In this document: in pieces, positions 62,746 through 63,148 of the stretch
Position numbering within the stretch: position 1 is the stretch's first letter
How the letters are laid out: each line of letters begins with the position of its first letter
From: Escherichia phage CJY920
Sequence record: PQ349265.1
Direction: 5' to 3' (one strand)
Length of the DNA: 64,000 bases
Position numbers and translations under genes: made by a program
Notes under the pieces: model-generated
The model's database searches: none
The model's input: the letters and a program-made list of their open reading frames with translations, nothing else
Told to the model about the DNA's origin: nothing

Positions 62746-62818
62746 TGGGAATTAGCCAAGTTGGTAAGGCATAGCACTTTGACTGCTAGATGCAAAGGTT
62801 CAAGTCCTTTATTCCCAG
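62746..62818 (+). tRNA. tRNA-Gln (anticodon UUG)
   Basis: Acceptor TGGGAAT/ATTCCCA pairs perfectly; anticodon loop cTTTGac; T-arm AAAGG-ttcaagt-CCTTT. Confidence 0.8.
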
Positions 62819-62819
62819 C

Positions 62820-62906
62820 GCGAGAATGGCCAAATTGGTAAAGGCACAGCACTTAAAATGCTGCGGAATGATTTCCTTGTGGGTTCGAGTCCCACTTCTC
62901 GTACCA
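62820..62906 (+). tRNA. tRNA-Leu (anticodon UAA), type II with long variable arm, CCA encoded
   Basis: Acceptor GCGAGAA/TTCTCGT; anticodon stem CAGCA/TGCTG with loop cTTAAAa; T-arm GTGGG-ttcgagt-CCCAC. Confidence 0.8.
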
Positions 62907-62911
62907 AATTT

Positions 62912-62982
62912 GCGGATATCGTATAATGGTATTACCTCAGACTTCCAATCTGATGATGTGAGTTCGATTCTCATTATCCGCT
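62912..62982 (+). tRNA. tRNA-Gly (anticodon UCC)
   Basis: Acceptor GCGGATA/TATCCGC; anticodon loop cTTCCAa. Confidence 0.85.
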
Positions 62983-62995
62983 CAAATTTAATTTA

Positions 62996-63068
62996 CTCCG
63001 TGTAGCTCAGTAGGTAGAGCACCTCACTTGTAATGAGGACGTCGGCGGTTCGATTCCGTCAATCAGCA
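62996..63068 (+). tRNA. tRNA-Thr-like (anticodon UGU) with non-complementary acceptor stem; possible pseudo or chimeric tRNA
   Basis: D-arm, anticodon arm (CCTCA-cTTGTAa-TGAGG) and T-arm well formed, but 5' CTCCGTG cannot pair with 3' AATCAGC. Confidence 0.4.
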
Positions 63069-63074
63069 TATCAA

Positions 63075-63148
63075 GGCCCTGTAGCTCAACGGTTAGCAGC
63101 AGTCCCCTCATAAGGGAAAGGTTACCAGTTCGAATCTGGTCTGGGTCA
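63075..63148 (+). tRNA. tRNA-Ile/Met-like (anticodon CAU)
   Basis: Acceptor GGCCCTG/CTGGGTC pairs 6 of 7; anticodon loop cTCATAa; T-arm ACCAG-ttcgaat-CTGGT. Confidence 0.6.

Follow-up and report, generated by a model that had tools for sequence, protein, structure and literature searches.

A 170-bp direct-repeat deletion in the tRNA array of Escherichia phage CJY920 leaves a chimeric, probably non-functional Pro/Thr pseudo-tRNA

Introduction

How does a tRNA gene lose the ability to pair its acceptor stem while the rest of its cloverleaf stays perfect, and could such a gene still serve the phage? This question is raised by a Thr-like element at positions 62996-63068 in a 64,000-nucleotide stretch of Escherichia phage CJY920 (sequence record PQ349265.1), here called the window. 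A tRNA array of the T4 type fills the last 1.3 kb of the window (62746-63934), which comes from a Tequatrovirus genome. Its order is Gln, Leu, Gly, the element at 62996-63068, Ile(CAU), the endonuclease gene segB and Arg. A sequence-only reading of the locus had proposed that a deletion removed tRNA-Pro and tRNA-Ser and fused a foreign 5' acceptor strand onto the body of tRNA-Thr. Here, the array was compared with those of related phages. We conclude that 62996-63068 is a chimeric pseudo-tRNA which arose by a 170-bp deletion in a T4-type array and which, judged from its structure, probably lacks function. We put the probability of this at roughly 0.85.

Results

A deletion between two copies of a 9-bp repeat

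The array region is about 94% identical to that of T4 and 96% identical to that of Shigella phage SP21535. No record of the phage collection turned out to be a copy of the window. Alignment with T4, and then with T4, PD112, SP21535 and CE1, showed one clean gap of 170 bp in the window. The parental order in T4 is Gln-Leu-Gly-Pro-Ser-Thr-Ile-segB-Arg, which confirms that Pro and Ser lie between Gly and Thr in that phage. In T4-type arrays tRNA-Pro starts with CTCCGTG-TAGCTCAGT-TTGG and tRNA-Thr with GCTGATT-TAGCTCAGT-AGG. In the window we found the join CTCCGTG-TAGCTCAGT-AGG (junction sequence CTCCGTG followed directly by TAGCTCAGTAGG), and its CTCCGTG is positions 1-7 of tRNA-Pro in T4, PD112, SP21535 and CE1. 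The parts of the element are the following.

62996..63002, plus strand: CTCCGTG, 5' acceptor strand of the former tRNA-Pro and 5' end of the chimera
63003..63011, plus strand: TAGCTCAGT, the one copy left of the 9-bp direct repeat, at tRNA positions 8-16
63012..63068, plus strand: remainder derived from tRNA-Thr(UGU), with the rest of the D arm, the anticodon arm, the variable loop, the T arm and the 3' end
63047..63057, plus strand: GGTTCGATTCC, SegB core recognition motif in the T-loop of the chimera (motif defined in PMC2330249)
63061-63067, plus strand: AATCAGC, Thr-derived 3' acceptor strand of the chimera, followed by the discriminator A

The copies of TAGCTCAGT lie at 954-962 and 1124-1132 in the SP21535 locus (L004), and at 1904-1912 and 2074-2082 in the T4 locus (L001). 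The repeat is thus present at both ends of the deleted DNA, one copy is left, and the spacing of the copies equals the length of the deletion, 170 bp, a hallmark of deletion between direct repeats (microhomology). The alignment directly shows both end points, the repeat and the loss itself. Removed were tRNA-Pro from position 8 or later, the whole of tRNA-Ser and the 5' acceptor strand of tRNA-Thr.

The alignment bears out the proposed loss of Pro and Ser that left a chimeric Thr gene, and the element was delimited exactly, together with both of its acceptor strands. One part of that proposal needs correction. Since the join falls inside the 9 bp common to Pro and Thr (positions 8-16), the fused strand is not foreign and is the native strand of the tRNA-Pro that once stood at this place.

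This kind of deletion is well understood. In the parental array TAGCTCAGT would have stood at positions 8-16 of both the Pro and the Thr gene, with a spacing of 170 bp. If the two copies recombine out of register or anneal, the DNA between them is removed, and in the product the Pro strand CTCCGTG is fused to the Thr body.

Over positions 63003-63074 the window is identical (72/72), trailer included, to SP21535, CE1 and the IMG/VR locus L008, in all of which the Thr gene is intact. When compared to T4 tRNA-Thr, the body of the chimera is identical at 65 of 66 positions, and the element as a whole differs from the native T4 gene. The Thr-derived part is therefore unchanged since the deletion. 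Little can be concluded from this, as tRNA genes in the group share 98-100% identity. Two candidates for decay after the deletion were ruled out. The trailer ATATCA (ACCA in T4) is a lineage feature of relatives with an intact cluster, and the CAA in place of CCA at the end of tRNA-Gly is also found in such relatives.

The chimera has no acceptor stem

ARAGORN, run on the whole window, called no tRNA at 62984-63074, and thus no intact acceptor stem in another register. Rfam model RF00005 gave only a local match at 63003-63060 (model positions 8-63, 47.5 bits, E 1.5e-8), while seven intact Thr genes scored 72.9-75.4 bits over the full length. The local match spans the paired D, anticodon (UGU) and T arms and lacks the acceptor stem. 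Its E value places the tRNA-like body far beyond chance. The D arm, the 7-nt anticodon loop and the T arm with its GTTCGAATC-type loop are those of a canonical tRNA, but the canonical 7-bp acceptor stem (positions 1-7 with 66-72) is missing, in full agreement with the description made from the sequence.

We observed that CTCCGTG and AATCAGC pair at three of seven positions (U2.G71, G5.U68 and U6-A67), two of them G-U, and are mismatched at C1.C72, C3.A70, C4.C69 and G7.A66. Random 7-mers are expected to pair at about 2.6 of 7 positions when G-U is allowed, so the acceptor pairing is at chance level. A replacement strand was not found either. Upstream, back to 62700, no 7-mer outside the neighbouring tRNA genes pairs with AATCAGC at six or more positions, and the two that do so lie inside the Gln gene (62760) and the Leu gene (62879). 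Downstream, no 7-mer pairs with CTCCGTG at six or more positions.

The mismatches fall on important positions. The pairs G1-C72 and C2-G71 are the acceptor identity pairs for threonyl-tRNA synthetase (ThrRS) in E. coli tRNA-Thr. The Thr 5' strand GCTGATT provides them, whereas CTCCGTG gives C1.C72 and U2.G71. The minimum free energy (MFE) of the hybrid is -17.9 kcal/mol, with a structure of three hairpins (the D, anticodon and T arms), compared to -25.4 kcal/mol for the intact SP21535 Thr, which folds into a clean cloverleaf. The fold of the 237-nt Gly-hybrid-Ile segment had a z of 0.35, in a prediction where the MFE structure misses even the known cloverleaves. A promoter and terminator scan showed nothing exceeding the shuffle expectation.

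The tRNA cluster is made as one transcript of about 1.75 kb (PMC2330249). Since the array is transcribed as a single precursor, the chimera would be transcribed with it. Having no acceptor helix, it is not expected to be a substrate of RNase P, the CCA-adding enzyme or ThrRS, and with pairs 1-72 and 2-71 broken neither CCA repair nor charging is expected. We infer from this structure that the gene is non-functional, and the earlier judgement to that effect was well founded. The chimeric RNA would be degraded or would stay as a trailer of tRNA-Gly. tRNA-Ile would still be released by RNase P, while the 3' end of tRNA-Gly would now carry a 91-nt structured trailer, probably removed by an endonucleolytic cut in the AU-rich spacer. 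By this model the phage would have lost Pro(UGG), Ser(UGA) and Thr(UGU) and kept Gln, Leu, Gly, Ile and Arg. Under laboratory conditions the phage can do without the tRNA region, as stated in PMC2330249 with reference to Wilson et al. 1972.

Phage T6 carries the same junction

A 43-nt junction query (BLAST, GenBank phages, E <= 1e-7) found three records, all of phage T6, each with a contiguous 42/43 match: MH550421 (66647-66721; locus L018 1509-1584), AP018814 and NC_054907. The T6 array has the order Gln-Leu-Gly-chimera-Ile-Tyr-segB-Arg. This is a direct precedent, with the same CTCCGTG-TAGCTCAGT-AGG join and the same loss of Pro and Ser. Again, ARAGORN made no call and Rfam matched positions 8-63 only.

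The T6 gene is annotated as 'tRNA-Thr-UGU', and it was treated and cloned as 'tRNAThr' by Chihara et al. (2026, PMC13096335). Supplementary Data 3 of that paper lists a tRNAscan-SE call for it (68-nt Thr, 62.5 bits, not pseudo), which explains the annotation. Of three intact Thr genes examined in the supplement, two score 72.9 and 77.5 bits and the third only 65.5 bits; judged by these entries, the value of the T6 chimera is low and not far outside the intact range. In T6 the chimera seems to have gone unrecognised: none of the papers searched describes the gene as one. The name 'tRNA-Thr' in T6, a model phage, is probably an annotation error. The genome of a T6 stock frozen in 1972 differs in size from MH550421 by no more than 4 bp (PMC8573959). 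This match dates the T6 scar to about 50 years ago or earlier and indicates that it did not arise in assembly.

Among 753 related records, the Pro/Thr junction was present in only two phages. Exact scans of IMG/VR, JGI metagenomes and GTDB genomes (two patterns on the metagenome and GTDB contigs) found no second copy; as a positive control for these scans, the wild-type Pro junction was found in three IMG/VR contigs. An IMG/VR match to the 27-mer CTCCGTGTAGCTCAGTAGGTAGAGCAC (L002) was rejected, being an unrelated intact tRNA-Pro(UGG) with CTCCGTG...CACGGAG. In 11 related arrays all tRNA matches to Rfam were full-length (66/66, model 1-71), with no truncated tRNA. Two other predicted fusions, Pro/Ser in the T-loop and Pro/Ile in the D arm, were absent from the phage collection when queried as T4 alleles, a search that variant alleles may escape. 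With all 66 matches full-length and both of these fusions absent, the Pro/Thr join is the only fusion type seen.

Could the chimera be a functional RNA, either an oddly matured tRNA or a decoy with a Thr(UGU) anticodon arm, for example for AriB of PARIS? Four of its seven acceptor pairs are broken, including the ThrRS identity pairs 1-72 and 2-71, and there is no alternative register. A junction found in two phages of 753 records is unlike a selected feature. The D, anticodon and T arms are flawless and have stayed as they were, but conservation carries no information in a cluster that shows 98-100% identity between these phages. What speaks for a function is that T6 has kept the chimera through at least about 50 years of laboratory propagation (1972 stock, PMC8573959), that the anticodon stem of host tRNA-Thr(UGU) is where AriB acts (PMC12409363) and that the T6 copy has the tRNAscan-SE score of 62.5 bits listed in the supplement mentioned above. 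Taken together, we consider a functional RNA very improbable.

One deletion or two

The junction in T6 and in the window stands on different haplotypes. From Leu to Ile, T6 has the T4 allele with the deletion and one private spacer single-nucleotide polymorphism, while the window has the L008/SP21535-type allele with the deletion. From Leu to the trailer the two differ by 5 substitutions and a 2-nt indel. The nearest informative sites are CTCA/CTCC at 18 nt on the left and GGAC/GGAT at 37 nt on the right, and the trailer indel. T6 was never the closest relative of the window in any flanking segment. One junction in different flanking haplotypes favours two independent deletions over shared descent.

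Alternatively, a T6-like ancestor underwent the fusion a single time, the window's phage acquired it through descent or recombination, and the flanks were later converted to the SP21535/G8 type. The two phages agree in the junction base for base, and recombination among T-even phages is very frequent. The window's cluster is also finely mosaic: the Leu acceptor has a T of the SP type and the Leu-Gly spacer 8 nt on is of the T4 type, the Thr body is of the SP type and Ile is of the T4/PD112 type. However, a single origin would demand exchanges on both sides of a 170-bp heterology, within about 18 nt of it on the left and 37 nt on the right. T6 is also the least similar of eight phages to the window in the left flank, and in the right flank it is outranked by three identical phages with an intact cluster. 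The intact allele closest to the T6 chimera is that of T4, and the one closest to the window is L008/SP21535. Since the join is forced into the 9-mer, identical joins are expected from independent events. We therefore think a single origin unlikely. Judged from the flanking haplotypes, it is more parsimonious, by roughly 2:1, to assume that the repeat gave rise to two independent deletions, and the repeat pair is probably a deletion hotspot that was hit twice.

SegB as a possible trigger

The core recognition element of SegB, GGTTCRANTCC, is the tRNA T-loop (PMC2330249). The Gln, Leu, Gly, Pro and Ser genes of T4 carry SegB sites; cleavage of the Ser site was mapped in vitro and the others were inferred from identity with cut T2L genes (PMC2330249). 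In the SP21535 locus (L004) we found the core motifs GGTTCAAATCC (Pro, 999-1009) and GGTTCGAATCC (Ser, 1088-1098) within the interval 963-1132, so two SegB motifs lie in the deleted interval between the recombining repeats. In T6, the nuclease activity of SegB, UvsX and UvsY are all needed for the microhomology-associated amplification of the locus, and SITE-seq peaks of SegB were located within the tRNA genes (PMC13096335). By coordinate conversion, the peak at AP018814 66662-66665, as given in the supplement of that paper, falls in the T-loop motif of the T6 chimera itself.

A SegB break in the T-loop of Pro or Ser would start the deletion. Resection, followed by annealing at the flanking copies of TAGCTCAGT, would then give exactly the observed product. 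It is plausible from this analysis that a break made by SegB triggered the deletion. Spontaneous replication slippage or misaligned recombination between the 9-bp repeats, with SegB uninvolved, has close to an even chance. Deletions at 6-8-bp direct repeats readily arise in T4-family phages, many of them bordered in tRNA genes (PMC5449768), the repeat and its spacing fully account for the product, and the expression of SegB in T4 was argued to be tightly restrained (PMC2330249). The two core motifs in the deleted interval, the SegB- and UvsX/UvsY-dependent microhomology rearrangement at the same locus (PMC13096335) and the appearance of the same rare product twice among segB-carrying phages point the other way, none of them decisively. 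We infer that a SegB trigger and spontaneous slippage are about equally likely.

The segB gene of the window carries a -1 frameshift (A5 to A4 near 63713), which leaves open reading frames (ORFs) of 188 amino acids (63190-63756) and a 33-amino-acid remnant (63753-63854). SegB is truncated after residue ~174, keeps the GIY-YIG domain and loses the C-terminal ~46 residues. In T4, T6, PD112, SP21535 and CE1 the gene is intact at 666 bp. A truncation of 28 amino acids from the C-terminus makes SegB non-toxic (Chihara et al. 2026, PMC13096335). The segB frameshift was the only unexpected one among about 60 T4 homologues in the window, which makes widespread homopolymer error an unlikely cause of it; the other interruptions are the natural uvsW/uvsW.1 split and an insertion in gene 17.

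This one-base homopolymer change next to the array could be taken as a sign that the junction is itself an assembly or sequencing artefact of the source genome. We give this hardly any credence. An assembly would not collapse at a repeat as short as 9 bp, the single frameshift among about 60 T4-homologous genes indicates high sequence quality, and two independent sequencing projects of T6 (MH550421 and AP018814) share the junction, so that it is real at least there.

The rest of the array and of the window

The neighbours of the chimera are the following.

62746..62819, plus strand: tRNA-Gln(UUG), intact (ARAGORN ttg; Rfam RF00005 full-length, 66 bits)
62820..62906, plus strand: tRNA-Leu(UAA), intact (ARAGORN taa; Rfam full-length, 61.7 bits)
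62912..62983, plus strand: tRNA-Gly(UCC), intact, CCA not encoded (UCAA) (ARAGORN tcc; Rfam)
62984..62995, plus strand: Gly-Pro intergenic spacer of the CAAATTTAATTTA type, retained (alignment)
63069..63074, plus strand: Thr-Ile trailer TATCAA with no encoded CCA, the same in SP21535, CE1, PD112 and L008
63075..63148, plus strand: tRNA-Ile(CAU) of the T4/PD112 type, intact (ARAGORN Met/Ile(cat); Rfam full-length)
63190..63854, plus strand: segB, GIY-YIG homing endonuclease gene, frameshifted
63858..63934, plus strand: tRNA-Arg(UCU), intact (ARAGORN tct; Rfam full-length)

The five tRNAs called by ARAGORN all match RF00005 over model positions 1-71. Gln, Leu and Gly fold cleanly, as the sequence-only reading had it, and an Ile/Met(CAU) tRNA does follow right after the chimera. 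The missing CCA of tRNA-Gly (UCAA) is seen likewise in SP21535, CE1 and PD112 by alignment.

The CAU tRNA 3' of Thr exists as two very different alleles at one position among the relatives. A 74-nt 'Ile' type is present in the window, T4, T6 and PD112, and a 72-nt type with different arms in SP21535, CE1, L008, L009 and L010. With its SP21535-type Thr body and T4-type CAU tRNA, the window has an exchange point a few bases from the Thr/Ile boundary. The size of the array varies widely among relatives that have the upstream gene trna.2 in common. The arrays we examined hold 2 to 11 tRNAs, with only the CAU and Arg tRNAs in the IMG/VR loci L012-L014 and 11 tRNAs in L009. PD112 (L003) has an ORF in place of tRNA-Gln, and at 4080-4173 of L012 ARAGORN called a 94-nt 'tRNA-Stop (tta)'.

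Elsewhere in the window, gene 17 (large terminase) is split on the minus strand at 33443-36295. The ORF of its N-terminal part (35402-36295) ends in ...IYIDE/C..., the ORF of its C-terminal part (33443-34828) contains ...VESHN/CAFIPNF..., and an ORF for a 206-amino-acid TnsA-like endonuclease (34816-35436) lies between them. The Pfam domain Terminase_6N is split at about profile position 105. From the sequence, this arrangement suggests a split intein whose N-fragment is short, together with a free-standing endonuclease, presumably resembling the metagenomic AceL-TerL type. SP21535, PD112, CE1, BYEP01 and HY03 have the insertion at 99% identity or more, and it occurs in 16 records in all. Four stretches of 0.75-0.9 kb are extra when compared to T4, at 38412-39227 (genes 13/14), 30679-31435 (18/19), 54035-54961 (5/5.1) and 58580-59349 (3/2); they are probably additional free-standing homing endonuclease genes. 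On the minus strand, uvsW (~17458-19216) matches the 587-residue T4 RefSeq protein in two frames (residues 2-511 and 505-587). We take UvsW and UvsW.1 to be separate ORFs in T4, so the two frames are probably the natural state and not an error.

Discussion

The T6 'tRNA-Thr-UGU' is the closest known counterpart of the window's chimera, with the Pro 5' strand joined to the Thr body in TAGCTCAGT and with Pro and Ser lost. It differs in its T4-type haplotype (Gly ...CTCCA, GGATGTC, encoded ACCA trailer), in the tRNA-Tyr after Ile and in its intact segB, whereas in the window the flanks are of the SP21535/G8 type, Tyr is missing and segB is frameshifted. The intact T4-type arrays (T4, SP21535, CE1, PD112 and a G8-like IMG/VR contig) have the same gene order, near-identical Gln, Leu, Gly, Ile(CAU), segB and Arg and an identical Thr body. 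Unlike the window, which lacks the 170 bp, they carry Pro, Ser and a Thr with the 5' strand GCTGATT.

The classical T4 tRNA-region deletion mutants of Wilson and Abelson, which PMC2330249 cites, are reportedly short direct-repeat deletions of the same class. In the ToxIN-escape deletions (PMC5449768) a short direct repeat with one copy left is seen as well, and borders in tRNA genes were called recombinogenic. Those deletions are kb-sized, laboratory-selected and remove whole genes, whereas the 170-bp deletion in the window joins two tRNA genes in register and is known from sequenced phage isolates. The SegB 'genomic accordion' (Chihara et al. 2026, PMC13096335) involves the same locus, T-loop cuts by SegB, microhomology repair by phage recombination and a truncated SegB. 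In T6 it is an amplification (718-bp Tyr-segB repeats), while the window shows a deletion that may depend on SegB. T-even phages also vary in tRNA content, with several T4 tRNA genes missing in T2L, RB1 and RB3 (PMC2330249). In the related variable arrays, in contrast to the window, every tRNA found was full-length, with no chimeric remnant.

Several points weigh against our reading. tRNAscan-SE, in the supplementary entry, still scores the T6 copy at 62.5 bits with no pseudo flag, and the case against function is a structural one for the window's phage as for T6. The argument for independent recurrence uses few informative sites in a finely mosaic region. Nothing ties SegB to this particular deletion, and T4-like phages undergo short direct-repeat deletions free of any endonuclease, as in ToxIN escape (PMC5449768). 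The other predicted tRNA-tRNA fusions were not found in the phage collection. A wider view would make the Pro/Thr D-arm repeat a recurrent SegB-provoked hotspot and the contraction side of the 'genomic accordion', with array content shaped by self-inflicted breaks together with selection by tRNA-targeting defences and with the T6 'tRNA-Thr' dead. As a whole we find this view doubtful.

The finding itself is modest, a real deletion remnant which is ordinary in kind, and its main interest lies in the mis-annotation in T6 and in the link with SegB. There is also a point of method: ARAGORN and tRNAscan-SE disagree on this gene, and a covariance-model match truncated at both ends flags a fusion pseudogene.

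If the chimera is dead, T6 and the window's phage would be without phage-encoded Thr(UGU), Pro(UGG) and Ser(UGA), which matters for experiments on tRNA-targeting defences, and differences between T6 and T4 towards such defences would have to be read differently. AriB of PARIS cleaves host tRNA-Thr(UGU) and, by sequencing, probably cleaves tRNA-Pro(UGG) to a minor extent (PMC12409363), so the loss of the phage copies could matter on some hosts. Two phages with the same join in different haplotypes would represent a natural microhomology deletion hotspot in a tRNA array, right beside a tRNA-cutting endonuclease. This offers a testable link, in which SegB may cause contractions of the array as well as amplifications.

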